A stretch of 64,000 bases of DNA, from the IMG/VR virus record IMGVR_UViG_3300008227_000004; one strand, given 5' to 3'. This document shows, one piece after another, positions 24,292 to 49,869 of the stretch. The position numbers and the translations under genes are program-made. The notes under the pieces were generated by a model. The model was given only the letters and a program-made list of their open reading frames with translations, did not search any database and was not told the DNA's origin. Every line of letters starts with the position of its first letter. Within the stretch, counting starts at the first letter, position 1. The DNA is from a virus.

Positions 24292-24486
24292 CATAAATAT
24301 TATTTAAAGAGGAGATCATCATGACGTATCAAAGAATATTAATACTGGTTATCATTTATTTGTTTGGAGTTGCTACACCATACGCATATCGTGGGTATAC
24401 AATCGACCCCTATCAAAACTCCAAACTGGATGGTGCAGGTAGCATAAATACCTCTCAATAGTAAGGTAAACCAGGAGAGCTTTGTC

Positions 24487-24750
24487 ATGGAAGCTAAGAA
24501 AATATTCATATTCATTTTTACAGCATTACTTCTGTTGTGTTGGGGTGATGTATTGTTAACAAACTACATGATACATGTACCAGTAACACCAGATTATACT
24601 GCCGCACACAACGTAGCTAAGGGGTTGTGGGGTTTTTGTTTATCATCATGGACATTCTTGTTGTATTACAACTGGAGGTACCATCGATCGTGTTGTGCAG
24701 CTTGCTTGGTTGACGAAGCCCACTCATGCGCATACGATCATGACGATTAA
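24487..24750 (+). CDS. small membrane protein
   Basis: 87 aa; RBS GGAGAG; N-terminal TM. Confidence 0.45.
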   Translation: MEAKKIFIFIFTALLLLCWGDVLLTNYMIHVPVTPDYTAAHNVAKGLWGFCLSSWTFLLYYNWRYHRSCCAACLVDEAHSCAYDHDD

Positions 24751-25033
24751 ACGTCCGTCAGCGGCTTTAATAAAATTGGCTAGCATCAAACTAGCCACAT
24801 TTGCTTGTCTTGTTATCTGGGGGTTAATACTGTGGAACGATTTACCTGACGCATTGTCGTATATTAGTATTTTGTACGGTATGGCTGTTCAATTGTGGCT
24901 TGGGTGTGTTGTTGGTATAATCTTTGGTCTATCAAAACGCACACACACAATATGCTCTCACACTGAATGTGTATTACACCCTGTATACAGGTCACGGAAA
25001 CAAAATGAAGAAACAGATAAAAACCCTCAATGA
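24695..25033 (+). CDS. membrane protein
   Basis: 112 aa; two TM segments. Confidence 0.45.
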   Translation: MQLAWLTKPTHAHTIMTIKRPSAALIKLASIKLATFACLVIWGLILWNDLPDALSYISILYGMAVQLWLGCVVGIIFGLSKRTHTICSHTECVLHPVYRSRKQNEETDKNPQ

Positions 25034-25190
25034 CATCGCTCGGTTGCGATATGACGTAGTACGACTGTATGATTTACCGGAATTCAATGGTAGCTTAAAA
25101 GCATATGTGACAACACAATTAGACAGTATGATTGCTGGACAAACCAGTCCGACAGACTTTATCGAGATGTATCAACGTATTAATAGTTGA
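25005..25190 (+). CDS. hypothetical protein (start moved to internal ATG to limit overlap)
   Basis: in frame with track ORF 24924-25190. Confidence 0.35.
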   Translation: MKKQIKTLNDIARLRYDVVRLYDLPEFNGSLKAYVTTQLDSMIAGQTSPTDFIEMYQRINS

Positions 25191-25222
25191 TAATTGGATC
25201 GCAATAGGGTATCATTTACGCA

Positions 25223-25750
25223 TTGATAACTAACTGGATAAAGCACATGACTTATATACCAACCACATTGCCCGATAATATTTCTGCACAAATTGACATT
25301 CCAGATGATTTTGTAACGGATATGTTGGAACTGATCAAAGATACGGTGATAATCGAGACAGGCGATCACTTTTCCTTGTCACCGCTGTTGAGTGGTGGTA
25401 TGTGTGATGACTCAAAAACCAAAGACAAAGATACCATCATTATTAGTCACGAATTCTTGGCCAATTTGTTAATTAAAAAATATCCAATCGAGTTGATGAT
25501 TTACTATCAACAAAATAAGGATAATTCACTTAATGTTGACCTAATTTATGTGCTGGTAAAACTTCTCCATGATGATCCCGCCTTCCTGGCAGCACGTAAC
25601 AAAGAGTTACTCCCAACATCTGATTTGTTGGAAGATATGATTACATTTGATGAGCAGATACTCAAGATCCCACCAAATATGTACAATGACATCGCAAGTT
25701 ACAAAACTACCATGGATATAATTGCCTCTCTTTCGCAGAATGACCGTTAG
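25223..25750 (+). CDS. hypothetical protein
   Basis: 175 aa. Confidence 0.5.
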   Translation: MITNWIKHMTYIPTTLPDNISAQIDIPDDFVTDMLELIKDTVIIETGDHFSLSPLLSGGMCDDSKTKDKDTIIISHEFLANLLIKKYPIELMIYYQQNKDNSLNVDLIYVLVKLLHDDPAFLAARNKELLPTSDLLEDMITFDEQILKIPPNMYNDIASYKTTMDIIASLSQNDR

Positions 25751-25757
25751 TAAGCGT

Positions 25758-25786
25758 TTGATTCTTGGTGTATAAGACAATATAAT
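25758..25786 (+). promoter_or_regulatory. sigma70-like early promoter (TTGATT, 17 nt, TATAAT)
   Basis: consensus -10, 30 nt upstream of the endolysin start. Confidence 0.55.
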
Positions 25787-25816
25787 TAAACAACGATATT
25801 ACATCGAGGTGAATAC

Positions 25817-26620
25817 ATGAATATAGAAACAATACAAACAGTACAAACTGGTATGAATAAGCATTGCGCTCAGAACTTGATCGTTGATGGTGATGCTGGT
25901 GCAAAAACAATGGCAGCATTGGATCACGTTCCACAAATCCCATTACCTTGGAAGGATCAACGCAAAATCGTGTGTTTCATCCAGTTGTATGCTTTTATTG
26001 AAGGATTCAATGGAGGACCAATAGATGGATACATGGGACCACAAACATTATACGCATTGGATCAACTAAAGTATTTAATCAAACATGATAAACCAGAACA
26101 AATTTGGCGTGATGGTGATGTTAATGTTCCAGCACCTGGTATTATATCGGATATTCCTTTACAAAATTACAAAGACCTAGTAAAATATTACGGAGAAGTG
26201 GGTACAAATCAAGTAAAAGTTGATTTGCCACATGCTGTACGTCTGGCTTGGGATACTGACACAAAAATCAACAGATTTACTTGTCACGAAAAGGTTGCTG
26301 ATAGTATCGTTCGTGTGTTAGATCGAGTTCTGGATCATTACGGATCCGAACAATACATCGATTTGGGTATGGATCTTTGGGCTGGATGTTTGAATGTTCG
26401 TAAGATGCGTGGTGGTAACAACTACTCCATGCACTCTTGGGGTATTGCTATCGATTGGGATAGTGCCAGAAATCAGTTAAAGTGGGGAAGTCAACGTGCC
26501 AATTTTGCAAATCCAATGTACGACGAGTGGTGGAAAATCTGGGAAGATGAACAATGGACATCTCTTGGACGTGCCACGAATCGTGACTACATGCATGTAC
26601 AACGAGCTAGATTAAAATGA
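25817..26620 (+). CDS. endolysin: two peptidoglycan-binding repeats plus M15-type zinc peptidase
   Basis: 267 aa; N-terminal LIVDGDAGAKTMAAL and GPQTLYALDQL PG_binding_1-like repeats; C-terminal SMHSWGIAIDWD...DYMHVQ matches VanY/M15 SxHxxGxAxD...D..H. Confidence 0.65.
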   Translation: MNIETIQTVQTGMNKHCAQNLIVDGDAGAKTMAALDHVPQIPLPWKDQRKIVCFIQLYAFIEGFNGGPIDGYMGPQTLYALDQLKYLIKHDKPEQIWRDGDVNVPAPGIISDIPLQNYKDLVKYYGEVGTNQVKVDLPHAVRLAWDTDTKINRFTCHEKVADSIVRVLDRVLDHYGSEQYIDLGMDLWAGCLNVRKMRGGNNYSMHSWGIAIDWDSARNQLKWGSQRANFANPMYDEWWKIWEDEQWTSLGRATNRDYMHVQRARLK

Positions 26621-30639: not shown

Positions 30640-31061
30640 GTAATCACACGACCAGCAAAATCAGTATCAGTTGCACTACTAAATGTTATAGTAAACGTAT
30701 TAGTAGTCGTAGCTGTTATACTACTAGACTGAGCAATAGCTACAGCATCAGCTTGCATGATTGCATATCCCAACGTCGAATTGCCCAAGTTGTGTGTTAT
30801 CGTGTATACTCCTGCACTATCACGTACAACAGACCAACCGCCTGGTAATACTGTACCAACACCTGCTCCAGTCACCTCTATGTAATGTGTACCTGGTGCA
30901 GAAATGCTAGACTCCCATTTCGCGTTTGTGTTATTCCACACCAATGCTTCACCATCTGCAGGTCCGGGGGCACTTACATCTTTGATGTCGTTTAAATCTA
31001 TCTTACCTTTCAAGCTCTCTGTTAAGTCAACTTGATAATCGGCTATTGTTGGTTGAGTCAT
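30636..31061 (-). CDS. hypothetical protein (Gly/Thr-rich, fiber-like)
   Basis: 141-aa minus-strand ORF ending just before the 31106 promoter. Confidence 0.4.
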   Translation of the reverse strand: MTQPTIADYQVDLTESLKGKIDLNDIKDVSAPGPADGEALVWNNTNAKWESSISAPGTHYIEVTGAGVGTVLPGGWSVVRDSAGVYTITHNLGNSTLGYAIMQADAVAIAQSSSITATTTNTFTITFSSATDTDFAGRVIT

Positions 31062-31105
31062 TATAATTTCCTATTAGTTAATAATGGTGTATTTATAATG
31101 GTTGG

Positions 31106-31134
31106 TTGACAACAACAACACTTTAACCTATAAT
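31106..31134 (+). promoter_or_regulatory. sigma70-like early promoter (TTGACA, 17 nt, TATAAT)
   Basis: perfect consensus hexamers, 30 nt upstream of the ligase start. Confidence 0.6.
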
Positions 31135-31163
31135 ATACTCAATTACACAAATAAGGGTTACCA

Positions 31164-33140
31164 ATGAGTTTTATCACAGATGCAGCAAAATCCACAACCG
31201 AATTAATTGATACACTGATCGAAGAGCATTCAACCCAGGAATTAATTGATATTCTAATGACTGCCGACGATGAATATGCCAACAGTACTGATGGTGATTT
31301 AACACTAACAGACACACAATACGACATCCTACGCCGCAAATTGCAACTCTCCGTTCCTCACCACGTATATTTTACTGGGGTTGGAAGTGCTGTCCGTGGT
31401 GGTAAAGTAAAACTGCCACATAAAATGGGCAGTCTAAACCAAATATTCGAGAATGATGTAGAAGCTTGGGTTTCTGATAACCGATTAACAACATCACGAT
31501 TTGTTATAACCGACAAACTTGACGGTGTTAGTGCGATGGTAATCTATCCTGGTAACGATGAACCGTTTCAAATTGGTTATAGTCGTGGGGATGGTACGGA
31601 AGGTGCGGATATTTCTCGTCACCTATCAAAAATTGTACCAAAATCAATACCACACCCAACATCGTTGGCTATTCGTGGTGAAATCATTCTAACAAAAGAA
31701 GGGTTTGATGTCCTGAAAACTAAAGTGTTTACTCGTCAGGGCTTAGAATACAAAAACGCTCGCAATATGGTTGCAGGGTTGATGAATTCAAAAACAAATC
31801 CGGATATCGTGTATTCATTTCTCAAATTCGTATCATACCAAATCGTTGGTGTTACTCTTAGTAAAACAGCAATGCTGTATACTCTAATGGAGTACGGCTT
31901 TAAAGTTCCCGTTCTGGCAACGCGGATGGGTAGGGATCTGAATGATCCAGACTTAATTGCATACCTAACAGAACGAAAAGAGAAAGCTGAATATGAAATC
32001 GATGGTATTGTTGTTGATGTTGATGACGAATTAGAGCGTGTGAGACTCAGTCCAAATGCTGCTGCCCTCAATCCATCATATTCATTTAAGTACAAAACGA
32101 CAGATGCTGATAATTACGCAGAAACGGAAGTTACTTGGATTGAACTGAGATTATCCAAACACGGATTCATAAAACCACGATTTCACGTTAAACCTGTTAA
32201 TCTGGTCGGTGTTACTATCGTTCATGCTACAGCCCTAAACGCCAAATACTTACTAGAAAACAAAATCAGACCAGGCACAAAAGTGGCAATCTCTCGTATG
32301 GGGGATGTGGTTCCTAATGTAACAAAGATTTTGGGACAGACCGACGAAATGTCTGATGACGAATACAACTTGTGGTTCAATGATCAAATGGATCAGTTCG
32401 GCGTTTGGACCTGGTCTACCACAGACAAAGGGGACGGTGTGGATGCAAAGGTAGTCGACATTAGCAACCATTCCATCATATTAATCAAGCAGTTATATGA
32501 TTTCTTTGATAAACTAGATATTGCGTTTCTTGGTATGGGCAATGTAACGAAATTAGTTGATAGCAAAATTGACACACCCGAATCGATACTAACAATGACC
32601 GAAGCTGAATTGGTTGGTGTGCTGGGTGAGAATGGGAAAAAAGTATTCAAAAGCATTCACGAAAAGTTAAATGGTATTACACTACACAAGCTAGTAGGTG
32701 CACACTCAAATCAACGTGGAATTGGTATACGAAAGATGCGTAAGGTTGAGCTAGCAGTTGGTGGTAACTTTACCACCAACCAATCAATATCATCGATCAA
32801 ATCGTTGGATGGCTTTGATACCATCACCGCTACGGGCGCCATGGCCGCTATAAACGCATTCAATGACTTTTTCCCCATCGTTAAGCATCTGGTAACACTT
32901 GAAAGTGCAACACCAACCGATGCTAAATTAGCTGGGATGAAAATATGCTTCACCGGCTTTCGTGATAAACCACTTCAAGCTGCTGTGGAGTCGAAAGGTG
33001 GTACAGTACAGAGTGGTGTTAGCAAAACCACCGATCTCGTTGTGACCGTTGATGTGAACGGTGCGAGTGGTAAACTAAAGAAAGCCAGAGATCTAAGCAA
33101 AAAGATCATTACAGTTGAAGACTTCATGCAGTTGTTATAA
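31164..33140 (+). CDS. ligA: NAD+-dependent DNA ligase (LigA-like) with C-terminal BRCT domain
   Basis: 658 aa; adenylation motif TDKLDGVS; OB-fold and HhH-like regions; C-terminal BRCT-like KICFTGFRDKPLQAAVESKGGTVQSGVSKTTDLVV. Confidence 0.8.
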   Translation: MSFITDAAKSTTELIDTLIEEHSTQELIDILMTADDEYANSTDGDLTLTDTQYDILRRKLQLSVPHHVYFTGVGSAVRGGKVKLPHKMGSLNQIFENDVEAWVSDNRLTTSRFVITDKLDGVSAMVIYPGNDEPFQIGYSRGDGTEGADISRHLSKIVPKSIPHPTSLAIRGEIILTKEGFDVLKTKVFTRQGLEYKNARNMVAGLMNSKTNPDIVYSFLKFVSYQIVGVTLSKTAMLYTLMEYGFKVPVLATRMGRDLNDPDLIAYLTERKEKAEYEIDGIVVDVDDELERVRLSPNAAALNPSYSFKYKTTDADNYAETEVTWIELRLSKHGFIKPRFHVKPVNLVGVTIVHATALNAKYLLENKIRPGTKVAISRMGDVVPNVTKILGQTDEMSDDEYNLWFNDQMDQFGVWTWSTTDKGDGVDAKVVDISNHSIILIKQLYDFFDKLDIAFLGMGNVTKLVDSKIDTPESILTMTEAELVGVLGENGKKVFKSIHEKLNGITLHKLVGAHSNQRGIGIRKMRKVELAVGGNFTTNQSISSIKSLDGFDTITATGAMAAINAFNDFFPIVKHLVTLESATPTDAKLAGMKICFTGFRDKPLQAAVESKGGTVQSGVSKTTDLVVTVDVNGASGKLKKARDLSKKIITVEDFMQLL

Positions 33141-33394
33141 TGAATACATTATTGGTCCTTATGGTATTGGTTCTAGGAATCGTTAATGGATTCCTAGTTG
33201 TCTGGTGGGCTACCCTATTTAATGATTACCGAAATGGGTTCATAGGCAAGTATGGTGGTAGATACGAACGAATAGCATCATTGAGCATACAAGGTGTATT
33301 GCCTGTGCTATTTGTTATCGTATTTCTGGTTATGTCGGTGGGTTTGTCTTACGTGATAACGAACGCATACTTCGCCTGGATGGTATTTTCGTAG
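33140..33394 (+). CDS. small two-TM membrane protein
   Basis: 84 aa; start abuts the ligase stop. Confidence 0.5.
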   Translation: MNTLLVLMVLVLGIVNGFLVVWWATLFNDYRNGFIGKYGGRYERIASLSIQGVLPVLFVIVFLVMSVGLSYVITNAYFAWMVFS

Positions 33395-33473
33395 CATGCA
33401 CGTGCACGTATCGAGTATAATTCAGTTTTCTAATGGGACGAATCCCAATTTTATTAACAATAAAGAGAATATT

Positions 33474-33749
33474 ATGAAACAAAAAGGCTTCACATTAATT
33501 GAGATGATGATTGTGGTAACAATCATCGGTATATTAGCATCAATCGTTATCCCTGCGGTGAAGGAAATGGAAGAGCGTAAAGGTACAACTAGTAATCCTC
33601 CCGTATTCAAATCAAAAGAGAATATTGTCCGTGAGTACCTACCAAATAAAAAACGCAGTCACAAAGAAGTTACACTAAAACAACACTCAGATGGAACACT
33701 ATATGCGTGTGATGCCATTGATGTTGATACTTGTTATCGGGTGAAATGA
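33474..33749 (+). CDS. type IV pilin-like (prepilin) protein
   Basis: 91 aa; MKQKG-FTLIEMMIVVTIIGILA is a class III prepilin leader (G-1, F+1, E+5); C-terminal Cys pair YACDAIDVDTCY; AAGAGA RBS-like. Confidence 0.6.
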   Translation: MKQKGFTLIEMMIVVTIIGILASIVIPAVKEMEERKGTTSNPPVFKSKENIVREYLPNKKRSHKEVTLKQHSDGTLYACDAIDVDTCYRVK

Positions 33750-34495
33750 TGGGAACTATGATTCTGCTGTACTTTGCATTAATTGTTGGCACTATGTTTT
33801 TTGATTTCTTACTGGAGTTGGATATGCCATTGATACTGTACGTTATCGGAACTGGTGTGTTCGTTGGGTGGGCTGCTGCGAATATTCACATGGATGCTGT
33901 CATACCGGAAACACCAATCGCTATAACACAAGATATAAAAACCATCCAAGATGACACGAAGCGGGAATTGAATGCCATCAAAGCTGATGTGAAAGCAGAC
34001 ATGAGCAAATTACGACCAGACGTTAAGGCTGACATATCGGAAGTGGTGGAACAAACCACCGATAGTGATGATAGCTCTTCAGTAAACACAGGTTTTGTGT
34101 TGGTTACTTGTGTCATCTTCGTGGTGGTTTGGATATTTACCGAAAGTTTGTTTGTTGGGATATTCGTAGCATTTATGTTCTTTTCGTTTGTCGGTGATAA
34201 CATCAGTGTCACTAGTTCAACTTCAACAAAATCAGAAGATGCAGTCCAAACACTAAAACAAGTGAACACCAAAGGTAGACGGTTTAAAACCGAATACCTA
34301 AGCAATCGCATACGAAGCAAAACACCAATATATCTGTTTAAAGGTGATGATGGACAAATAGCAACAAGCGACCCATCACTAAAAGACGAAGCACCAATAA
34401 TTTTTAAACCAATTAAATTAGTAACACATTCATCGGGGATGCTATATGCCTGTAAAGATTCTAAACAATGTTATCCGGTAGGTCAGTATGAGTAA
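33746..34495 (+). CDS. multi-TM membrane protein with pilin-like C-terminal disulfide domain
   Basis: 250 aa; several TM helices; C-terminus GMLYACKDSKQCYP parallels the pilin C-terminus GTLYACDAIDVDTCY. Confidence 0.5.
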   Translation: MMGTMILLYFALIVGTMFFDFLLELDMPLILYVIGTGVFVGWAAANIHMDAVIPETPIAITQDIKTIQDDTKRELNAIKADVKADMSKLRPDVKADISEVVEQTTDSDDSSSVNTGFVLVTCVIFVVVWIFTESLFVGIFVAFMFFSFVGDNISVTSSTSTKSEDAVQTLKQVNTKGRRFKTEYLSNRIRSKTPIYLFKGDDGQIATSDPSLKDEAPIIFKPIKLVTHSSGMLYACKDSKQCYPVGQYE

Positions 34496-35042
34496 GGTAG
34501 ATCAACACGATATGCTATTGGTGCTTGGAGATTGGTCCAGTGATGGTCACAGTCAAACAACCAACTTTGGTATCAGAACCAACAAAACGGTGGATGATAT
34601 ACAAAAAGCATACAAAGCATCATGCAAGATGACTGGAATATCCTTCAATCACAACGAGGATTATACCGAAGTCGCACGGGACTGGCGAGTGGATAAATTG
34701 TATCGAATTGCAACAGAGTATGACAAACCATTCACATATCAAGAAACGTATGATATATTAGTTGATTTGGATTGTCCTCTTGTTGATAATTTCATCAAAG
34801 GACATTATATGTATGATGGTAATGATGTGTACTACTTCAACGAAGACGATAGATTTAGACACTTTATCGACCTGTGGTTGTGGTTTGTGCAGTTGTCATT
34901 ACCCGATCTTGAGTATATAATGGCTCAAGACATTGCAATTGCTGATCCAGCATTTGCAGCATTTGATCCGCCACCACCTATTAATGGGTTTTGGAATGAG
35001 GGTCTTAACGTACAATTTGGCTATGGCCTGTACTGTCCATAA
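34488..35042 (+). CDS. hypothetical protein
   Basis: 184 aa; overlapping start. Confidence 0.5.
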   Translation: MSKVDQHDMLLVLGDWSSDGHSQTTNFGIRTNKTVDDIQKAYKASCKMTGISFNHNEDYTEVARDWRVDKLYRIATEYDKPFTYQETYDILVDLDCPLVDNFIKGHYMYDGNDVYYFNEDDRFRHFIDLWLWFVQLSLPDLEYIMAQDIAIADPAFAAFDPPPPINGFWNEGLNVQFGYGLYCP

Positions 35043-35048
35043 ATAACA

Positions 35049-35069
35049 GCGATGAGATAGACTCATCGC
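35049..35069 (+). promoter_or_regulatory. conserved hairpin element upstream of natV (GCGATGAG-ATAGA-CTCATCGC)
   Basis: perfect 8-bp stem with ATAGA loop, 27 nt before the natV ATG; same architecture upstream of nadV. Confidence 0.45.
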
Positions 35070-35095
35070 ATAACAATAACCTAGGAGGATTTCCT

Positions 35096-36133
35096 ATGAA
35101 TACAGAAGAACAATACGACTACCTCGTGTACATTGGTAGATTTCAGCCATCTCACTTGGCACACATCGAAACAATCAAAATTGCGTTACAACAATCCAAA
35201 AATGTTATAATACTAATCGGATCGTCATTTCAACCAAAGACAATCAAAAATCCTTGGTCATGGCAAGAACGTGCGGAAATGATCAGCAACTCGCTATCTC
35301 ATAGCGAAAAACTCAGAGTACAATTTGCACCCATTGCGGATGATGCTTACAACAATCAACGTTGGGTTACACAAGTCCAAAAAATGGTCGAAACGTTAAG
35401 CACCGAAGGAAGCCACATCGGAATGATCGGTCACACTAAAGATGACACATCATTCTACTTAAAAATGTTTCCTCAATGGAAGCATGTTGAGGTTCCTAAT
35501 ATCAACGACTTGCACGCAACTGACATCCGTGTCGCTTTGTTTGAACACTCAACAGACTTTTTCAGCAAACAAGTTATGCCAACATTACCAAAAGCTATTC
35601 ACGAATACTTGTTGGCATGGAAGCTAAAACCTATCTTCGAACAACTGAAATATGAATATGAATTTATACAGAAATATAAATCCGCTTGGGCTGTAGCTCC
35701 ATATGAACCAATCTTCGTGACAGTTGATGCTGTAGTGGTGCAATCAGGACACGTGTTATTGGTAAAACGGCGATCGGCTCCAGGAAAAGGATTGTGGGCT
35801 ATTGTCGGGGGGTTTGTAAATCCAAACGAGACTCTCATTGATGCTATGTTACGGGAATTAAGAGAAGAGACTAAAATTAAGGTGCCCGATCCTATATTAC
35901 GGGGGAATATCAAAATACAAGAGGTGTACGATCACCCTGCCCGAAGTTTACGGGGTAGAACTATAACACATGCTTACGGTATCGAATTACCACCAGGTGG
36001 ACTTCCAAAAGTGAAAGGAAGCGATGATGCTGAAAAAGCACAATGGATTCCGATTACCACAATTAAAGAAATGCGCGATCAATTGTTTGAAGATCACTAC
36101 GATATTATTTTTGATATGTTGGGACGGTTGTAA
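35096..36133 (+). CDS. natV: bifunctional NMN adenylyltransferase / Nudix ADP-ribose pyrophosphatase (NatV/NadM-Nudix-like)
   Basis: 345 aa; N-terminal nucleotidyltransferase motif YIGRFQPSHLAH (HxGH-type); C-terminal Nudix box GGFVNPNETLIDAMLRELREETKI; strong RBS TAGGAGGA. Confidence 0.85.
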   Translation: MNTEEQYDYLVYIGRFQPSHLAHIETIKIALQQSKNVIILIGSSFQPKTIKNPWSWQERAEMISNSLSHSEKLRVQFAPIADDAYNNQRWVTQVQKMVETLSTEGSHIGMIGHTKDDTSFYLKMFPQWKHVEVPNINDLHATDIRVALFEHSTDFFSKQVMPTLPKAIHEYLLAWKLKPIFEQLKYEYEFIQKYKSAWAVAPYEPIFVTVDAVVVQSGHVLLVKRRSAPGKGLWAIVGGFVNPNETLIDAMLRELREETKIKVPDPILRGNIKIQEVYDHPARSLRGRTITHAYGIELPPGGLPKVKGSDDAEKAQWIPITTIKEMRDQLFEDHYDIIFDMLGRL

Positions 36134-36177
36134 TAAATAACCTGGAAGAGAGCATTATCTCTTCCAGGAGACCACAC

Positions 36178-36792
36178 ATGGAAATGATAAACTTTAAACA
36201 ACGGTGGGATATATTATATCAAACGACAGACGATGTAGCTGAAACGTTAGTGGAAGCAAAACAACGCAATGCCACATATTATCGCCACATCTGTAAAAAA
36301 CACGGAAAAGTATTATTTTACACAAAAGACAATAGCTGTCCAATTTGTTGTAAGGTTGCTCGTGATATTCGTGTTACCCACAATAGGGTGTTTAATAGAT
36401 CCCGTGAAATATACAATGAAATTAAACAACGGGCAAAAAAAAAGAATGTTTTGTTTTTGTTGACAAAAGAAGAATTTAGAACAATATATGGAACAGTGCA
36501 TCTATGTCCGGTACTTCATATACCGATAGTATATGATAAAATCGAAGGAGTAATGACGGATAATTCTCCGTCCACTGATAGACTCATACCCGAAAACGGA
36601 TATACAATGGATAATATTAACATTATATCGAATCGAGCCAATCGGATAAAAAACAACGGAACACCAACCGAACACATACAAGTTGCTATTTGGCAATTGA
36701 AACAAGAGGGTAATACTGCGGAAGATATATTGGATATAGTAACAACGGCACTAAACTCAACCAACATCGTCAATGCTTTCATTGGTGACTAA
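36178..36792 (+). CDS. HNH homing endonuclease inserted between natV and nadV
   Basis: 204 aa; HNH_3-like DRLIPENGYTMDNINIISNRANRIKNN motif; zinc-binding CPICC. Confidence 0.55.
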   Translation: MEMINFKQRWDILYQTTDDVAETLVEAKQRNATYYRHICKKHGKVLFYTKDNSCPICCKVARDIRVTHNRVFNRSREIYNEIKQRAKKKNVLFLLTKEEFRTIYGTVHLCPVLHIPIVYDKIEGVMTDNSPSTDRLIPENGYTMDNINIISNRANRIKNNGTPTEHIQVAIWQLKQEGNTAEDILDIVTTALNSTNIVNAFIGD

Positions 36793-36850
36793 CAAAACCA
36801 GTTGTCGAGCATTGCAGTTACAGGTGATGCTTTTTATTTTTAACGCACAA

Positions 36851-36873
36851 GGGATATCGATAGACGATATCCC
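36851..36873 (+). promoter_or_regulatory. conserved hairpin element upstream of nadV (GGGATATCG-ATAGA-CGATATCCC)
   Basis: perfect 9-bp stem with ATAGA loop, 24 nt before the nadV ATG; followed by GAGGATTTC RBS block shared with natV. Confidence 0.45.
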
Positions 36874-36897
36874 ACGCAAACATAGAGGATTTCTATA

Positions 36898-38322
36898 ATG
36901 AACTTTTTACAACACGCAGTTTTTAACATTTTACTAAACACAGATTCATATAAAGCGAGCCATTGGTTGCAGTATCCCCCTGGTATTGAGTATGTTCACT
37001 GCTATATTGAATCGCGTGGTGGGGTATACGATGAAACGGTATTCTTCGGATTGCAGATGTTCTTACAAGAATACATGAGCAAACCAATCACACAAGAAAT
37101 GATTGACGAAGCGGAATTGTTCTGGCCTGCTCATGGTGAACCATTCAACAAAGAAGGATGGCAACACATATTAAAAGAGCACAACGGTTACTTACCGTTA
37201 AAAATCAAGTCGGTGGCGGAAGGTACTGTTGTACCGGTAAGCAATGCACTGGTTACTATCGTTAATACTGATCCGAAATGCTTTTGGTTACCATCACACG
37301 TCGAACCATCGATATTACGTGGTGTGTGGTATCCAACTACAGTAGCAACCAACAGCTGGACCACCAGAAAAGTAATTACGAGTTACATGAAATCAACATC
37401 CGACTTAACCGGACAAGAACAGGAAGATGCTATCGATTTTATGTTGCATGACTTCGGATCGCGTGGTGTTAGTTCACTGGAAAGTGCCATGATTGGTGGA
37501 GCTGCACACTTGGTAAATTTCAAAGGATCTGATAATGTACCAGGTATAGTTCACGCAAATAGACAATATTCGCATGAGATGTCAGGAAAATCTGTACCAG
37601 CATCCGAACACAGTTCAATTACTACATGGGGCAAGGGACGGGAGACAGAAGCATATCGCAATATGTTGAAGCAATATGGAGACAAGTTCTTCGCATTCTC
37701 TGTGGTATCCGACTCGTACGATATTTTCAATGCAGTTGAACATATCTGGGGTGATGAGCTGAAAGAATTGGTTATTGAGTGTGATGGGTGGCTAGTTATC
37801 AGACCTGATAGTGGTGATCCAGCAACCGTGGTAACAAAAATTATGTTGTTGCTTGAATCCGCATTCGGTTACATCCGTAATACCAAAGGCTATAAAGTAC
37901 TAAAACATGTTCGAGTGTTGCAAGGTGATGGCATTACAACCAAAAGCATTGATGCTATATTATCGAAGATGGTTGGATACAAGTTCAGTGCGGAAAATGT
38001 ATTATTTGGACAGGGTGGTGCGTTATTACAACAACTGGATCGAGATACTGGCAGATGGGCATATAAAGCAAGTGCTGCATTTATCAATGGTGAGTGGGTC
38101 GATGTATTCAAAGATCCGATTACCGATACCGGTAAACGCTCGAAACGTGGACAATTAATGTTATACCGTTCGGATGCAGGTAAATTTACAACAGATTGTA
38201 TTGGGGCAAAAACAATGGATGAACAAATGCTCACTCCTGTGTACCTAAATGGTAAAATATTGCGAACTACAACATTGGAAGAAGTTCGTACTACTAGATT
38301 CAACACAACTAACACATTATGA
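36898..38322 (+). CDS. nadV: nicotinamide phosphoribosyltransferase (Nampt/NadV)
   Basis: 474 aa; NAMPT hallmarks DSYKASHW, LHDFGSRG, GSDNVPG, RPDSGDP. Confidence 0.9.
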   Translation: MNFLQHAVFNILLNTDSYKASHWLQYPPGIEYVHCYIESRGGVYDETVFFGLQMFLQEYMSKPITQEMIDEAELFWPAHGEPFNKEGWQHILKEHNGYLPLKIKSVAEGTVVPVSNALVTIVNTDPKCFWLPSHVEPSILRGVWYPTTVATNSWTTRKVITSYMKSTSDLTGQEQEDAIDFMLHDFGSRGVSSLESAMIGGAAHLVNFKGSDNVPGIVHANRQYSHEMSGKSVPASEHSSITTWGKGRETEAYRNMLKQYGDKFFAFSVVSDSYDIFNAVEHIWGDELKELVIECDGWLVIRPDSGDPATVVTKIMLLLESAFGYIRNTKGYKVLKHVRVLQGDGITTKSIDAILSKMVGYKFSAENVLFGQGGALLQQLDRDTGRWAYKASAAFINGEWVDVFKDPITDTGKRSKRGQLMLYRSDAGKFTTDCIGAKTMDEQMLTPVYLNGKILRTTTLEEVRTTRFNTTNTL

Positions 38323-42136: not shown

Positions 42137-43231
42137 ATGTTAATATATGTAGTTGGTGGTGCCGTTAGAGACACCTTACTAAACCAACCAGTAAACGATA
42201 TCGATTATGTTGTTGTCGGTTCAACGCCCGAAGAGATGGAGTCGTTAGGCTACAAGCAAGTTGGAGCGGACTTTCCCGTATTCTTATGCCCCAATGGCGA
42301 TGAATACGCATTAGCTAGAACCGAGCGGAAAAACGGTAACGGTTACAATGGGTTCGAAACGAACTTCAATCCCACCGTTACCTTAGCCGAAGATCTACTA
42401 CGCCGTGACCTAACTATTAACTCAATGGCAGTATTGCTATCTGATTGGGATCAGTTCAAAACAACACATGATGTTACCAAAGTGATCGATCCATGTGGTG
42501 GGTTGCAAGATCTTGTTAACAAAACACTAAAACACACATCCGAGCATTTCGCGGATGATCCAGTACGATTGTTGCGAATAGCTAGATTCAACGCTAAGTA
42601 TGGGTTCAATGTAACCAGACAAACAATGCAATTGATGACAACAATGACCACAAACGGTGAAGTGGATCATTTGGTACCCGAACGTGTGTGGGCTGAAACA
42701 GCTAAAGCAATCGAGCTACCAAATGCAATGGAGTTTTTTTGGATACTCCATCGATGTGGAGCATTGAATGTTATCATACCAGGGCTAACAAAAACTCTGG
42801 TAGCAAATGGAAAATCGTTTAGATCGGCAACACTCAGAAATTGCAGCACCGCCATCCGAATGATGATATTATTTGGACCGATGCTGGATGCTTCTGACGC
42901 ATTAACAAAGCTACGAGCACCATCATCAGTAATCAGAGATGTGCTAGCATTTCAACATGCTATGCAATTGGTGAGCAACGATGTAACACCAGAGGCTGTA
43001 TTGGGATTTTTAAAAACAATAAAAACTTCTGAATTGCTCTACGATATTTCAACCGCCATTAGTGTAGTGAATCCATCAGGGGCGTTGATATACGATCGCG
43101 TTATACAAGGACACAACCTCATCAGATTTATATCGTTTCGTTCGCTACCGGCCAATCATACGTTGGAAGGTAAGCAAATTGGTGTAGCAATCGATAATCT
43201 TCGCATCGCAGTTATTGCTGACCTATTATGA
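42137..43231 (+). CDS. cca: tRNA nucleotidyltransferase (CCA-adding enzyme)
   Basis: 364 aa; VGGAVRDTLLNQPVNDIDYVV and RRDLTINSMA are class II CCA/poly(A) polymerase head motifs. Confidence 0.8.
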   Translation: MLIYVVGGAVRDTLLNQPVNDIDYVVVGSTPEEMESLGYKQVGADFPVFLCPNGDEYALARTERKNGNGYNGFETNFNPTVTLAEDLLRRDLTINSMAVLLSDWDQFKTTHDVTKVIDPCGGLQDLVNKTLKHTSEHFADDPVRLLRIARFNAKYGFNVTRQTMQLMTTMTTNGEVDHLVPERVWAETAKAIELPNAMEFFWILHRCGALNVIIPGLTKTLVANGKSFRSATLRNCSTAIRMMILFGPMLDASDALTKLRAPSSVIRDVLAFQHAMQLVSNDVTPEAVLGFLKTIKTSELLYDISTAISVVNPSGALIYDRVIQGHNLIRFISFRSLPANHTLEGKQIGVAIDNLRIAVIADLL

Positions 43232-43479: not shown

Positions 43480-44979
43480 ATGTCATTATTTTTAACGATA
43501 GTTTGTTTTGCGGCTATCATTGGTGTTTCCGTCTGGAAACGCATCCACAACAACAACTTAGCGAAAATGCGAGCTACTGGCAAAGAGCGGGGGTACGATG
43601 ACGAAAAAATCGAAGCCTTGTTGGAATCAGAAGTGTTTCCGCTACCAGCCTGGTCTGGTTCAGCGTTATTTGGTTTGGGTTCACTTTCATTATCAGTTTT
43701 CGTATTCAACTTCATGTTGTTTTATGCTCAACCGACACATATGTATCACGTAAGAACAATGTTCAACCAGGAACGTGTGGTTGATGGTATTGGGTGGTCG
43801 TATTATGGTGGTGGTCAGATTGAACCTTGGAAAAAAGCTGTATCTGTTCAAGCAGCTAACAACACTGGTGCTGGCAATGCAGATCAAATTTCACAAAACG
43901 AAAATGCTATTAGTGCCAACTTACTACCACAAAATATCGTATTCTTGGACAACGTAGATGCTGATGCTTCCGCTTCTGTACGTTTTAGACTACCAACCGA
44001 TAAAGAAACATTTTTGCATTTAGCACACGAATATCGAAACCCAGCTAACTTCTTACGTACTGCACTAATTCCTGCATTTAAAGAGACGTTGCAAGCTACC
44101 GCATCATTAATGAGTGCCGAAGAATACTTTGCTGGTGCTCGTACAGAATTCGCTACCGAGTTCGAAAACCAAATGAATAACGGTATATACTTGGTTCGTC
44201 GTGAAGAGTTCGTTGTTGCTGATAAAACACAATCAACCAAAAGTTCCGCAAACGCATCTAAAGGTGACAAGCAAGACGATTACGAAGATAACAAAAAAGT
44301 CATTTTCAAAGTTGTTAAGGTTATGGAAGCTGATGGTGTGACACCAGTTCGTAAGAAACAAGCGTTTACCAATTATGGTGTGTCTGTTATCGAAGCTCGT
44401 ATTCCCAACATGGATCCTAATAGTGAGTTTATCACTCGAATGCAGAAAAAACAAAAAGCTTCTGCTGACCGTGCCATCGCTCGTGAGAGTCGAATCCAAG
44501 AAGAAGAACAGAAGTTGTTAGCAATCGCCAAAGGTGATCGCGAAGTAGCTGAAAGACAAGCTGTTTGGAGAGCTGATCAAATCGAACAAACAACTAAAGC
44601 GGAAACAGCTAAACAGCTAACAATCACAGTTGCCAACCAATTAAAAGAACAAGCGGAAATCGACAAGAAAACTGCTGACATCTTACTTGAAAAGGCACAG
44701 GTGGACGCTAAAGCGACAGTTGTTACTGCTCAAGCGGAAGCAAAGAGTCGTAAGCTTAAAATCTTAGCAGATAACGGGTTGAAGCTGAAAACAGATGCAA
44801 TCGTCCAAATGAATAAGGACAACGCAGAAGCATTCGCCAAACGTAAAGTACCAACAACAGTAGTGTATAGTGGTAACGCCAAAGGACAACTTGGTAGTAG
44901 CAGTGATATGGACACAGTCGTAACCAGTCAAATGTTAAAGAACTTAAAAGCGCTTGACTTGGATATGTCAGTAAAGTAA
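43480..44979 (+). CDS. membrane protein, SPFH/band-7 (flotillin)-like with coiled-coil tail
   Basis: 499 aa; N-terminal TM; central region with SPFH-like pattern; long Ala/Lys/Glu coiled coil. Confidence 0.4.
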   Translation: MSLFLTIVCFAAIIGVSVWKRIHNNNLAKMRATGKERGYDDEKIEALLESEVFPLPAWSGSALFGLGSLSLSVFVFNFMLFYAQPTHMYHVRTMFNQERVVDGIGWSYYGGGQIEPWKKAVSVQAANNTGAGNADQISQNENAISANLLPQNIVFLDNVDADASASVRFRLPTDKETFLHLAHEYRNPANFLRTALIPAFKETLQATASLMSAEEYFAGARTEFATEFENQMNNGIYLVRREEFVVADKTQSTKSSANASKGDKQDDYEDNKKVIFKVVKVMEADGVTPVRKKQAFTNYGVSVIEARIPNMDPNSEFITRMQKKQKASADRAIARESRIQEEEQKLLAIAKGDREVAERQAVWRADQIEQTTKAETAKQLTITVANQLKEQAEIDKKTADILLEKAQVDAKATVVTAQAEAKSRKLKILADNGLKLKTDAIVQMNKDNAEAFAKRKVPTTVVYSGNAKGQLGSSSDMDTVVTSQMLKNLKALDLDMSVK

Positions 44980-47109: not shown

Positions 47110-47186
47110 GGGGTTGTAGCTCAGCTGGAACGAGCATCTGCCTTGCAAGTAGAGGGTCGGGGGTTCGAATCCCCCCAGCTCCACCA
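47110..47186 (+). tRNA. tRNA-Ala (anticodon UGC)
   Basis: cloverleaf: acceptor GGGGTTG/CAGCTCC, D-arm GCTCAGCTGGAACGAGC, anticodon loop CTTGCAA, T-arm GGGGGTTCGAATCCCCC, CCA encoded. Confidence 0.8.
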
Positions 47187-47622
47187 ATAAGAACAACATG
47201 CACGAGGATGGGTTGATGATGTGTAACACGCGGTCAACTTAAAGGAGCCTAGATCGTAGCCTAAGCTACTACGAACATTCCCACCGCAACCTTGTGCGGA
47301 AGATAGACGCAACCTTTTATAGTAAGGATTATAAGGCAGGTTAGTACGCCTGTGGCATCGCAAGTACTCGAGTGAAGTCTGAAAGGTGTTTTACCGTGCC
47401 AAACACTCGTTAATCAAAGTCGGAAACGGTTTTCACTATATACGGATATATGAAAAAGAAAATACGGATAATTTCAAAAATAAACAAGCAACACAGACGA
47501 GTAATCGAACATGGTGTTGCGGAATGTGGTTCCATAATCGTTATGAAAAAGGAACCTTTAAGCTCACTACATCCTAACCTACATTTTGATAATGACGGTT
47601 GGTATATGTGGTGTGATAATAA

Positions 47623-47695
47623 GCCTTAGTAGCTCCAATGGTAGAGCTCTAATTTCGTAATTTAGATGTTGCTGGTTCGACTCCAGTCTAAGGCT
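47623..47695 (+). tRNA. tRNA (anticodon CGU, Thr by rule)
   Basis: acceptor GCCTTAG/CTAAGGC perfect; D-arm GCTCCAATGGTAGAGC; T-arm GCTGGTTCGACTCCAGT; anticodon loop TTCGTAA. Confidence 0.65.
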
Positions 47696-47699
47696 CACA

Positions 47700-48158
47700 A
47701 TGGATTTGTATTTGTGGGTGATGGTTCGACTCGTAAATATGGGCATGAAAAAATGTACTAAGTGTGATAGTGATAAACCGTTAACTGAATTCTACAAAGC
47801 TGTTAGAATGAAGGATGGGTACCAATCTAGTTGTAAATCGTGTGCTGATGTAAGCACCAAAGGATCCAGGGCTAAAAACCCAAAGAAATATCACAACATG
47901 CGATATTCGTATGCAAAACAACGCCAGGCATACATAACGTCGTTGAAGATGCAATCAGGGTGTGTGTGTTGTGGTGAAGATGAATTGTGTTGCTTAGATT
48001 TCCACCACTTAGATCCGACACAAAAAAAATTCAACATTAGCAGCGCTGCCACGAAATGTGGATGGGGGGTGTTACTGGAAGAAATACAAAAGTGTGTTAT
48101 CGTGTGTGCTAATTGCCACAGAAAGATACACAACAATTTAATAACAATAAGCTCTTGA
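47700..48158 (+). CDS. HNH endonuclease embedded in the tRNA cluster
   Basis: 152 aa; zinc-finger CTKCDS...CKSC and HNH core CVCCGEDELCCLDFHHLDP...CANCHRKIH; its stop overlaps the next tRNA 5-prime end. Confidence 0.65.
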   Translation: MDLYLWVMVRLVNMGMKKCTKCDSDKPLTEFYKAVRMKDGYQSSCKSCADVSTKGSRAKNPKKYHNMRYSYAKQRQAYITSLKMQSGCVCCGEDELCCLDFHHLDPTQKKFNISSAATKCGWGVLLEEIQKCVIVCANCHRKIHNNLITISS

Positions 48159-48227
48159 AGCATTTATCTGGATGATGTCAACTCTTGTAAAGTTGGGAAT
48201 ACGGTTCGATTCCGTACTGGAGCTCCA
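48151..48227 (+). tRNA. tRNA (anticodon UGU, Thr by rule) with atypical D-arm
   Basis: acceptor GCTCTTG/CTGGAGC (one mismatch); anticodon arm CAACT-CTTGTAA-AGTTG perfect; T-arm TACGGTTCGATTCCGTA; CCA encoded. Confidence 0.5.
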
Positions 48228-48242
48228 CAATAAGGAAGTAAC

Positions 48243-48476
48243 ATGACTTTTAGTATTAAAGATATTGTAAAAAATAATGTAGCTAACATGCTATACTATA
48301 GACACCAAGTAGTGTATTATAGTGTATTGGTTCCAGGTGAAAACATTGAGTATTCATTTCCGGTTCCATTGGATGATGTACAGGATGCTACCCTTCACCA
48401 CGAAGAGAAGGCAATACTGTTGATGAGATACATCCGCAAAGCTGTTAAAGATGGCACGTTCGTAAAGGTAATATAA
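48243..48476 (+). CDS. hypothetical protein
   Basis: 77 aa; RBS AAGGAAG upstream. Confidence 0.5.
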   Translation: MTFSIKDIVKNNVANMLYYRHQVVYYSVLVPGENIEYSFPVPLDDVQDATLHHEEKAILLMRYIRKAVKDGTFVKVI

Positions 48477-48670
48477 TGAAAGACAAACGGTCGATTGAAC
48501 TAACTGGAACAGATATTGTGTTGGAGCTATCAAAAGCAACTGCGGTAAAAACACAAAAGAACATGATACATTTGGATGAACTTGATGATGGAACCTGGAG
48601 ATTGATTTATAATGGTAACTTAATCCCTGATTTTTCCCAAATCTCAGCACTAACAATGGTGCGACAATAA
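48476..48670 (+). CDS. hypothetical protein
   Basis: 64 aa; overlapping start. Confidence 0.4.
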   Translation: MKDKRSIELTGTDIVLELSKATAVKTQKNMIHLDELDDGTWRLIYNGNLIPDFSQISALTMVRQ

Positions 48671-48903
48671 TGTATATGACATATGGTGTGATAACTAGAG
48701 GTGGGTATAGTGGTGGTGAGTGGAGCGAGACTTCACGCACCATCAACATACAAGCTAAAACTAGAAAGAAATTGCAAGCAAAGAAAGATGAAGCTACAAA
48801 AACGCACACGAGTGCTGGCAGTCCAATCGACTTTGGGTATGTATCAGGGACATCAGAAATCGAGTGGTCATCACAACTGTGGAAGTTAGTTTCTTCCACC
48901 TAA
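48670..48903 (+). CDS. hypothetical protein
   Basis: 77 aa; overlapping start. Confidence 0.4.
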   Translation: MYMTYGVITRGGYSGGEWSETSRTINIQAKTRKKLQAKKDEATKTHTSAGSPIDFGYVSGTSEIEWSSQLWKLVSST

Positions 48904-48914
48904 TTTTAATAATA

Positions 48915-48986
48915 GCGGATTAACTCAATTGGTAGAGTGCTCACCTGATAAGTGGGAAGTTTTGGGTTCGAATCCCAAATCTGCTA
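48915..48986 (+). tRNA. tRNA-Ile (anticodon GAU)
   Basis: acceptor GCGGATT/AATCTGC; D-arm CTCAATTGGTAGAG; anticodon arm CTCAC-CTGATAA-GTGGG; T-arm TTGGGTTCGAATCCCAA. Confidence 0.75.
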
Positions 48987-49004
48987 CAAACAAAAAGGAT
49001 AATA

Positions 49005-49451
49005 ATGATAGGTACATTAACAATTTCGCAAGCTGTAATAGGATTCCTAGGATTCCTGGGTATCAACAATTTCAAAGAACTTACCAACGCCATATATGGA
49101 TTGGTTGGGATGAAAAGGGATGGTGTTGAGATAATCCAGACGGATAACGATGTTGAGATTCGTAAGAATGGCAAGCTGATTATCAAGTTTGATGTTGACT
49201 CCATAGAAGAAATGTTTGATAATACGTTACCAGTTCCGGACTTCTCATACAACTCGTATGAGGCGTTTATTGTTAACCAATGGGATGTGTTGGACCCGAA
49301 GCCAACCATTATAAAATTGTGGCGTGAAGATGCTGCCATTTTGATTAAAATAAAATATCCAGGTACTGGACAAGAAGCAACAACGAAAATAGAACACGGT
49401 GACTTAGCTGAACAACGATTAACAATCTTAGCTGAACTACATCGAGAATAG
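49005..49451 (+). CDS. hypothetical protein
   Basis: 148 aa; follows tRNA-Ile. Confidence 0.5.
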   Translation: MIGTLTISQAVIGFLGFLGINNFKELTNAIYGLVGMKRDGVEIIQTDNDVEIRKNGKLIIKFDVDSIEEMFDNTLPVPDFSYNSYEAFIVNQWDVLDPKPTIIKLWREDAAILIKIKYPGTGQEATTKIEHGDLAEQRLTILAELHRE

Positions 49452-49456
49452 ATTAT

Positions 49457-49531
49457 TCCCACTGGGCCGCAAGGTGTGGCACCTCCCTGTTAAGGAGATT
49501 TAGCGAGGTTCGATTCCTCGAGTGGGAGCCA
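49457..49531 (+). tRNA. tRNA-Asn (anticodon GUU)
   Basis: acceptor TCCCACT/AGTGGGA perfect; anticodon loop CTGTTAA; T-arm CGAGGTTCGATTCCTCG; CCA encoded. Confidence 0.65.
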
Positions 49532-49546
49532 AATAAGGAAAAAGCA

Positions 49547-49759: not shown

Positions 49760-49869
49760 ATGTGTGCAATGCTGGACTTGGATGAGTGGCTTGACGAGAT
49801 GAAGCCAACCGATAGAGAACGCAATGTAAAAAGATTTAAAGATTTATATGTAGCACAATTTCAACAACT

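Follow-up and report, generated by a model that had tools for sequence, protein, structure and literature searches.

Type IV pili (T4P) drive motility, adhesion and DNA uptake, and for phages, adsorption that depends on pili is one of the major ways into the cell. The closest described systems are the P-FimU proteins of F10-like Pseudomonas phages, prophage-encoded pilins that enter the host pilus and block phages (Sztanko et al., Cell Rep 2026, PMC12952977); PilA-like open reading frames (ORFs), some of them truncated, were found in virulent phages in the same study, and the same roles were proposed for them (PMC12952977). PilA-like phage ORFs and the hypothesis of pilus interference are already known and, as an idea, not original. 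Here we describe two adjacent genes, ORF1 and ORF2, located at positions 33474-34495 of a 64,000-nucleotide stretch of viral DNA (IMG/VR record IMGVR_UViG_3300008227_000004; the whole stretch is called the window in what follows). What appears to be new is a conserved, coupled pair of a mini-pilin and a polytopic protein with a paralogous head module, accompanied by a small transmembrane (TM) neighbour and found in a rare uncultured clade. We tentatively favour the reading that ORF1 and ORF2 interfere with the type IVa pili (T4aP) of the host early in infection, by means of a defective subunit and a membrane-locked partner, a reading that seems plausible to us but falls somewhat short of probable.

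Several phage proteins are known to act on pili or on competitors. Tip and Aqs1, two phage inhibitors of T4P, bind PilB, and Imm and Sp of phage T4 are superinfection exclusion proteins that block the entry of competitors. Zip is described as a phage inhibitor of T4P that acts through PilZ in the cytoplasm (bioRxiv 10.1101/2024.03.05.583538). All of these are early or prophage-made phage proteins that disable pili or block competitors, as proposed for the pair described here, but they are not pilin-like, and searches with PHROGs and PADLOC found no similarity of ORF1, ORF2 or the small TM neighbour to Tip, Aqs1, Zip or T4 Imm/Sp. An analogy from the host side is TcpB, a minor pilin of Vibrio cholerae, whose incorporation, proposed to depend on Glu5, would bring assembly to a halt and set off retraction (PMC5207764). 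TcpB is a low-abundance pilin, and the likeness is one of action only: TcpB is a large type IVb host protein needed for normal pilus function, and its sequence was compared at the class III signal peptide only. For T4aP, the stoichiometry between minor and major pilins sets pilus dynamics (PMC13249403). Pilins are not mentioned in two reviews of jumbo phages (PMC7824862, PMC13282480).

ORF1 carries a class III signal peptide

ORF1 (33474-33749, plus strand) encodes a prepilin-like "mini-pilin" of 91 amino acids, the sequence of which reads MKQKGFTLIEMMIVVTIIGILASIVIPA.... A five-residue, basic leader with Gly at its end, MKQKG (33474-33488, plus strand), is directly followed by the N-terminal segment of the pilin helix (alpha1-N), FTLIEMMIVVTIIGILASIVIPA (33489-33557, plus strand), with Gly-1, Phe+1, Glu+5, Gly+14 and Pro+22 and about 20 hydrophobic residues. 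A linker rich in Gly, Ser and Pro leads from alpha1-N to the C-terminal module (residues 51-91; 33624-33746, plus strand). An earlier note, made from the DNA alone, had placed a prepilin peptidase site between MKQKG and FTLIEMMIV at 33474, followed by a hydrophobic helix, and profile searches bear this out: ORF1 matched the Pfam family N_methyl (PF07963) with an E value of 2.5e-10 and 39.9 bits (gathering cut-off, 21.2) and TIGR02532 with 39.6 bits (cut-off, 16.3). Indeed, a six-frame scan of the window with G-[FM..]-x-x-x-E, a relaxed motif, left ORF1 as the sole ORF in which a basic leader comes before it and a hydrophobic helix after it. The note had also held that homologues without the G-F-x-x-x-E signature would speak against a pilin; among the homologues, the G, F and E are retained without exception. 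Taken together, the sequence evidence supports ORF1 as a phage protein with a true signal peptide of class III (prepilin type). Cleavage after Gly5 would leave a mature protein of 86 amino acids.

The protein has exactly two cysteines, C79 (33708-33710) and C87 (33732-33734), both within the C-terminal module. They form a C-x7-C loop, and not the Cys-x8-Cys loop described originally. The loop follows Tyr-Ala-Cys, and the pair is invariant in the ORF1 family, whereas bacterial pilins have Trp-x-Cys and a longer loop, without demonstrable homology. ORF1 probably does not start at an in-frame ATG further upstream (33396). All homologues start with M-K-x-K-G, and the DNA upstream of 33474 aligns among the relatives as non-coding sequence with a conserved GAG-containing ribosome-binding site; for these two reasons the start at 33474 is preferred.

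The earlier note had further called ORF1 a pseudopilin and had proposed an alignment to pilin structures. When a profile of the ORF1 family was compared with all PDB sequences, the type IVa (T4a) major pilins came first, with PilA of Pseudomonas aeruginosa at the top (8tum, 1.7e-13; 1oqw, 7e-13) and the pilins of Neisseria and Dichelobacter also among the leading matches. GspG, in contrast, reached only 1.2e-4 in the same search, about nine orders of magnitude behind the T4a major pilins. Models of pseudopilins were matched by ORF1 at scores far below their cut-offs (TIGR01710 GspG, 34.2 bits against 88.85; TIGR01708 GspH, 36.2 against 80; TIGR01707 GspI, 14.5 against 44.35), and the same was true of all NCBIfam equivalog models (ComGC, GspG, GspH, PilA and others), which matched the N-terminal 30 or so residues only. 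The prepilin type of the protein thus stood, whereas pseudopilin is the weaker label because alpha1-N is nearest to that of T4a major pilins. A T4a-type alpha1-N was taken to be one with a leader of fewer than 10 amino acids, Gly14, Pro22 and best similarity to major pilins, and all of these were found in ORF1. The type IVa major pilin family PF00114 did not match ORF1, nor was a full alpha-beta-roll head found. Judged by its sequence, ORF1 is a prepilin-type protein with an alpha1-N like that of T4a major pilins, and cannot be classed as a member of the PilA family or as a pseudopilin.

These scores bear on the idea that ORF1 hits the pseudopilus of the type II secretion system (T2SS) or a competence pilus and shuts down secretion or DNA uptake during infection, or that it simply titrates the prepilin peptidase PilD as a competitive substrate. 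All prepilin-type substrates share PilD and the design of alpha1-N, the matches to the GspG, GspH and ComGC models point the same way, if weakly, and the headless alpha1-N peptides of other phages (see below) would suit a pure competitor for PilD or the assembly platform. The lead of the T4a major pilins over GspG and the distance of every equivalog model from its cut-off argue in the other direction. We consider this explanation unlikely, and it would be compatible with interference with T4aP.

A comparison with PilA itself (strains PAK and PAO1; PDB 1OQW and 8TUM) shows where the likeness ends. Shared are the five-residue, basic, Gly-ended leader, F1, E5, G14 and P22, and the motif IPAY(K/Q)(D/E)(F/Y), which the relatives of ORF1 keep in PilA-like form; a C-terminal Cys loop, putatively disulfide-bonded, after an aromatic-x-Cys sequence is a candidate for a further common feature. 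However, mature ORF1 has 86 residues compared with about 140 to 160 in PilA, which has an alpha1 helix of about 53 residues lying on a four-stranded sheet. In mature ORF1 the helix is predicted to end near residue 32, and after it come a linker of flexible nature, only three strands, all short, and the seven-residue loop. An AlphaFold2 (AF2) model built from six sequences (predicted local distance difference test score [pLDDT], 62) has a helix at residues 8-37, a low-confidence linker, a second helix at residues 50-55 and three strands. According to this model, ORF1 is a stub and does not have a full alpha-beta-roll head.

The small size of the head is also relevant to the possibility that ORF1 acts in the manner of P-FimU, as a mimic that does not inhibit the pilus: placed in functional pili, or at their tip or base, it would alter the surface so that adsorption of phages to the pilus is lost, and ORF2 would be an assembly helper. 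This has a direct precedent (PMC12952977), and since Glu5, Gly14 and Pro22 are fully conserved, ORF1 may indeed be built into filaments. Moreover, ORF1 and P-FimU are both phage-encoded proteins with a type IV pilin N terminus, and P-FimU enters T4P biology to protect phage against phage. Yet P-FimU proteins are full-size minor pilins with extra loops that are expressed from a prophage and leave the pilus functional, whereas ORF1 is a major-pilin-like stub in a lytic jumbo phage, and its membrane-anchored paralogue has no counterpart among P-FimU. A head of about 40 amino acids in a mature protein of 86 cannot cover the surface that is covered by a PilA of 140 to 160 amino acids. Beyond the N terminus there is no similarity to minor pilins of the FimU/GspH type: with Pfam, only N_methyl and no FimU/GspH-like head was found in ORF1, the P-FimU sequences themselves not having been compared directly. 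The mimic would also leave the membrane-locked paralogue without a role, and we regard it as improbable.

ORF2 is coupled to ORF1 and carries a paralogous module

ORF2 (33746-34495, plus strand) encodes a multi-pass membrane protein of 249 amino acids, and its ATG overlaps the stop codon of ORF1 (ATGA). It consists of a first hydrophobic hairpin (residues 2-45; 33749-33880, plus strand), an acidic coiled or helical linker (residues 46-112, plus strand), a second hydrophobic block (residues 113-152; 34082-34201, plus strand), a spacer rich in Ser and Thr and a C-terminal module (residues 181-249; 34286-34492, plus strand) with C236 and C242. The two hydrophobic segments each contain an acidic residue in the middle, D20 and E133, and both are invariant in an alignment of seven sequences.

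ORF2 ends with ...HSSGMLYACKDSKQCYPVGQYE, that is, HSSGMLYAC-KDSKQ-CYPV, in which the cysteines form a C-x5-C loop. That the ORF next to the pilin gene ends in a similar LYAC...CYP module had been noticed before, and the similarity proved to be significant: BLASTP of the two C termini gave 13 identities in 28 positions (E = 1e-4), a second segment pairs EYLPNKKRS of ORF1 with EYLSNRIRS of ORF2 (E = 5e-4), and a profile-profile comparison of the two families with hhalign gave a probability of 95.7% and an E value of 1e-8. In ORF2 the module is laid out as TEYLSNRIRS, an insertion of 28 to 31 residues between the two halves for which two extra strands are predicted, and IKLVTHSSGMLYAC-x5-CYPV. 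The consensus in both genes and all lineages is EY[LIM]xNxxRS, a short helix, followed by [LV]xLxxHxxGxL[YFH]AC-x5-7-CY[PRE][VI], with E, Y, N, R, S, L, H, G, A, C, C and Y, in this order, invariant in both families. The invariant cysteine pair of the two families is consistent with a disulfide formed in the periplasm. The module was also considered as a remnant of strand beta4 plus the D-region of a pilin, and this was set aside as a lead only, the alignments behind it being an insignificant co-linear one and an insignificant second match to PilA.

The pair is conserved as a pair. Contigs collected through relatives of ORF1 and ORF2 fall into seven lineages (the window, L001-L003, L004-L006, L007-L009, L010-L012, L015 and L016-L018). 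Five full-length homologues of ORF1 were found, with 58 to 65% identity; all of them match N_methyl, and all have the cysteine pair. The homologues of ORF2 (244 to 279 amino acids) are less similar, with 27 to 45% identity, and keep the layout, the module and the acidic residues in the middle of the hydrophobic blocks. In every lineage in which both ends are visible, a pilin-like gene lies directly 5' of the ORF2 homologue and overlaps it by 1 or 4 nucleotides. Even in the partial lineage L015, the 139 nucleotides upstream of ORF2 encode ...YLPNNSRSATIVTLKQHSDGTVFACKVDGKKTCYEVR*, the C terminus of a pilin-like gene. In the lineages found, the pair is always located downstream of a gene for an NAD (nicotinamide adenine dinucleotide)-dependent DNA ligase. 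One contig from the Joint Genome Institute (JGI), Ga0164310_10013542, has a pilin-like gene (L102, 85-306) that is frameshifted after ...ERKEGK next to an intact ORF2 homologue, which may be an assembly error or a pseudogene.

A protein of 84 amino acids with two TM helices and, between them, the strongly conserved loop WWxTLFxDYxxGFIGxYGGxYEKxAS is encoded by the syntenic 5' neighbour of the pair (33140-33394, plus strand). Its homologues in five relatives (36 to 43% identity) also lie 5' of the pilin gene, either directly or with one inserted ORF, and the 84-residue protein may be a third member of the cassette. It had no match in Pfam, PHROGs, NCBIfam or PADLOC and none in GenBank phages by tblastn.

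Other searches showed how restricted the family is. When 1.84 billion representative proteins were searched exhaustively with HMMER, just five clusters of the ORF2 family came up, and nothing else in that collection carries the shared module. A scan of IMG/VR with the ORF2 family found nothing, tblastn of ORF2 against GenBank phages found nothing, and a scan of JGI metagenomes gave three loci only, all from one lineage that was already known. PADLOC and NCBIfam contained nothing for ORF2, the 84-residue protein or the 184-residue protein encoded downstream. In a scan of genomes from 185,579 species, only the N-terminal 30 to 67 residues of ORF1 were matched, and no full-length bacterial homologue was found. 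As far as sequence searches reach, the C-terminal module, ORF2 and the 84-residue protein are without detectable relatives outside the clade.

Selection on the helix and possible action of the pair

If the helix of ORF1 were a mere membrane anchor, it should drift as other TM segments do. Among six lineages, residues 1-28 of ORF1 have a mean pairwise identity of 76%, compared with 26% and 32% for the two hydrophobic blocks of ORF2; the shared module has 67% in ORF1 and 55% in ORF2. Because of this difference between the ORF1 helix and the membrane blocks of ORF2, we conclude that the sequence of the helix, and not just its hydrophobicity, is under selection. K4, G5, F6, T7, L8, I9, E10 and P27 (precursor numbering) are invariant in the homologues of ORF1 and also in unrelated phage mini-pilins. 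This pattern favours selection for recognition by the prepilin peptidase and for Glu5-dependent contacts during assembly over selection for mere anchoring.

Well over 100 virulent phages carry small pilin-like ORFs; their hosts are Pseudomonas, Vibrio, Aeromonas, Acinetobacter and cyanobacteria. By tblastn, N_methyl-type N termini were found in 134 phage records, among them phages of Synechococcus (49), Pseudomonas (37), Vibrio (29), Aeromonas (10) and Acinetobacter (4). Small N_methyl ORFs of virulent myoviruses include NVP1081O_058 of Vibrio phage 1.081.O (82 amino acids), gp97 of Acinetobacter phage Acibel004 (107 amino acids), gp139 of PAK_P3, p038 of PX29 and ORFs of the Aeromonas phages 44RR and Aeh1 (Nolan 2006, PMC1524935). 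They resemble ORF1 in leader and alpha1-N (M-K-x-K-G-F-T-L-I-E-L-M-I), in small size and in a setting of early or nucleotide-metabolism genes, and in gp058 of Vibrio phage 1.081.O the C terminus is likewise a short loop between cysteines (...GKQMLC-x6-CVPVK). They differ in that only the first 30 to 45 residues can be aligned, and in none of the small phage N_methyl ORFs compared was the module EYxxNxxRS...HxxGxLYAC or an ORF2-like multi-pass partner found. Some consist of little more than alpha1-N, such as gp139 of Pseudomonas phage PAK_P3 (59 amino acids; L099, 1495-1674) and p038 of Aeromonas phage PX29 (31 amino acids; L100, 1501-1596). These headless ORFs suggest that alpha1-N itself is the active part. 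Both of them overlap the start of a downstream ORF that looks soluble.

The conservation data must be weighed against an envelope complex that is independent of pili, in which the helix of ORF1 would be a mere signal-anchor that delivers the Cys module and in which ORF1, ORF2 and perhaps the 84-residue protein would block DNA injection or an incoming lysozyme, as Imm and Sp do, or would be a superinfection sensor as in lysis inhibition by RI and T of phage T4. In the T4 RI/T pair, a small N-terminally anchored protein is combined with a larger membrane protein that has a disulfide-containing periplasmic domain, and the pairing of ORF1 and ORF2 is reminiscent of that arrangement. Two different anchors bear the same module, no other part of ORF2 is conserved as well (55% compared with 26 to 32% for the anchors), the operon looks early, and the conserved neighbour with two TM helices is of a size like that of T4 Imm. 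A generic anchor, however, would not hold Gly-1, Phe+1, Thr+2, Leu+3, Ile+4 and Glu+5 invariant, nor would it keep 76% identity next to TM helices that have drifted to about 30%, and many other phages retain the pilin helix alone, without any module. On balance, a pilus-independent envelope complex appears rather doubtful to us.

According to the favoured reading, interference with host T4aP, the locus would be a translationally coupled cassette of two inner-membrane proteins, or of three if the 84-residue protein belongs to it, derived from a type IVa major pilin of the host. ORF1 would insert with its N terminus inside and its C terminus outside, and the host's PilD would cut it after Gly5; no gene for a prepilin peptidase was found among ten membrane ORFs of the window. 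The near-canonical alpha1-N, with Phe1, Glu5, Gly14 and Pro22, would admit ORF1 to the assembly site of the host's type IV pilus, the T2SS being the less likely target. Since its head is predicted to be a disulfide-stapled beta-module of only about 40 residues, ORF1 may be a defective or "poison" subunit or a competitor, and extension of the pilus would be stalled or destabilised. ORF2 would display a slightly larger, paralogous head, presumably in the periplasm, on an anchor that is polytopic and so not extractable from the membrane; this head would most likely pair head-to-head with ORF1 or with host pilins and so lock the complex at or near the machine. The timing is likely to be early, and the likely benefit is that pili are removed or blocked, so that pilus-dependent competitors are excluded and fewer progeny are lost on infected cells.

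A more specific version would be a tethered plug, a two-component device against pili of a kind not described before: ORF1, processed by PilD, would sit in the assembly site of T4P or T2SS while its head is held by ORF2, and the machine would be irreversibly jammed. In addition, D20 and E133 of ORF2 might capture the positively charged N terminus of pilins, as Glu5 does in the filament. We regard this version as fairly improbable; if true, it would be the first case in which the head domain of a pilin has been grafted onto a membrane anchor of another kind, and a new mechanism of receptor shutdown by a phage.

A number of findings weigh against interference with T4aP. The Tyr24/Tyr27-type residues, retained in the relatives, have been lost from ORF1 of the window. 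The AF2 model of ORF1 is of low confidence and has no fold match, nothing below E = 0.68 being found by Foldseek in the PDB, and the model of ORF2 is of low confidence as well (pLDDT, 47). The membrane segments of ORF2 are, unusually, flanked by Lys or Arg on neither side, which makes the topology ambiguous, and its second hydrophobic block of only 35 residues could form one or two spans. A profile of the shared module did not match any PDB sequence even at E values of up to 10, and an hhalign comparison of the module with the head regions of 58 bacterial T4a pilins, which came from the genome scan and were chosen for Cys loops of 8 to 30 residues, gave a probability below 1%; "pilin head remnant" is therefore no more than a tentative label for the module. 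A copy of the module is also found on an anchor that is not a pilin, so the function may lie in the module and not in the pilin helix. Furthermore, the scan of 185,579 species gave no clue to the host.

The locus nevertheless offers a sharper handle than most phage pilin-like genes, with a pilin helix under selection, an obligate coupled partner that has the same head module and an apparently early gene. The mode of action of the pair would reveal how lytic phages shut down a surface organelle within minutes, and minimal peptides that block assembly of T4P or T2SS could result.

Expression, replicon and neighbouring genes

In the window, the genes follow each other in the order ligase, 84-residue protein, ORF1, ORF2, 184-residue protein and genes of NAD salvage. 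This string is headed by a perfect sigma-70 consensus promoter, TTGACA-17-TATAAT (31106-31134, plus strand), 30 nucleotides upstream of the gene for the NAD-dependent DNA ligase. It is the only perfect one in the 64 kb of the window, where 0.07 would be expected, and the host RNA polymerase probably uses it as a strong early promoter. L002, L003, L007 and L016-L018, which with the window represent most lineages, have the same perfect promoter upstream of the ligase region (TTGACA-N17-TATAAT; L002 3960-3988, L003 472-500, L007 439-467, L016 3432-3460 and L018 1859-1887). The conservation of this promoter at the head of the gene string suggests early transcription of the cassette by the host RNA polymerase. 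A possible internal promoter is the -10-like hexamer TATAAT at 33416-33421 (plus strand), 52 nucleotides upstream of the ORF1 start and identified by consensus match only; TATAAT, TATAGT or TATACT is aligned at the same site upstream of the pilin gene in L004, L005, L007 and L012.

The early-type context bears on a further explanation, a lysis cassette in which the 84-residue protein would be a class II holin and ORF1 and ORF2 would be spanin-like, spanning the periplasm, or an antiholin. ORF2 does have a membrane anchor, a coiled acidic segment and conserved Cys residues, and PHROG matches of ORF2 to an Rz-like spanin (E = 0.017) and of ORF1 to a holin (E = 0.13) were obtained, but these are driven by composition and not significant. 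ORF1 has no lipobox Cys and is, therefore, not an o-spanin. The endolysin of the window (phrog_17001, 1e-79) is encoded at 25817-26620 (plus strand), about 7 kb away, with small TM ORFs of its own just upstream, and the sigma-70 promoter and the ligase and NAD-salvage genes form an early-type setting. A lysis cassette is the weakest of the alternatives; we rejected it on context and consider it very improbable. The small TM ORFs upstream of the endolysin (24321-24461, 24487-24750 and 24740-25033, plus strand) form, together with it, a likelier lysis cassette (24321-26620).

The gene content of the window is phage-like. The presence of a T4 RnlA-type RNA ligase, a tRNA nucleotidyltransferase, an endolysin, NAD-salvage genes and seven tRNA genes supports a phage origin, and an HNH endonuclease, a NadR-like nicotinamide mononucleotide (NMN) adenylyltransferase/Nudix protein, a nicotinamide phosphoribosyltransferase and the NAD-dependent DNA ligase are encoded as well. 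The best matches of the ligase are in jumbo phages (Phosso, XacN1 and Atu_ph07-type), with at most 39% identity, and the ORF1 and ORF2 proteins are on record from a JGI contig of 324,905 bp. Megablast of positions 31000-37000 against GenBank phages (50,697 records) gave no match at the nucleotide level. The source is an uncultured, lytic-type jumbo phage that belongs to a small clade of such phages and has no close cultured relative.

The surroundings of the pair vary among the relatives. A gene for an AAA ATPase lies directly 3' of ORF2 in several of them (L016, 6770-8833, and also L017 and L018; L001, 2017-2976; L003, 4138-5151), and the L016-L018 version contains an intein (Hom_end_hint/Hom_end); between ORF2 and the 184-residue protein of the window there is no such gene. 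In L004-L006 and L010-L012, a DUF4419 gene is located between the ligase and the pilin cassette. The ligase was called as two ORFs of 228 and 465 amino acids, separated by a gap of 118 nucleotides, in L010 and L011 (1513-3715).

Downstream of the pair, the NAD+ salvage genes of the window (35096-38322, plus strand) comprise the NadR-like adenylyltransferase/Nudix gene (35096-36133) and the nicotinamide phosphoribosyltransferase gene (36898-38322), split by an HNH/endonuclease VII-like gene (36178-36792) that is probably the insertion of a homing endonuclease. Two genes on the plus strand encode a membrane protein of 307 amino acids (5326-6249) and a protein of 587 amino acids (6266-8029) that has a TM helix at its N terminus and an OmpA-type peptidoglycan-binding domain (PF00691, 3e-16) at its C terminus, and this couple resembles envelope-tethering genes. 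A membrane protein of 499 amino acids with an SPFH/Band-7 domain (5e-13) is encoded at 43480-44979 (plus strand). In Aeromonas phage 44RR, an N_methyl ORF adjoins an SPFH ORF (Nolan et al. 2006, PMC1524935); the two gene types thus co-occur in other large myoviruses, as they do in the window. The tRNA nucleotidyltransferase gene is at 42137-43231 and the gene for the T4 RnlA-like RNA ligase at 61320-62468, and the seven tRNA genes (Ala, two Thr, Ile, Asn, Lys and Val) form a cluster at 47110-52118 (plus strand), interspersed with small ORFs.

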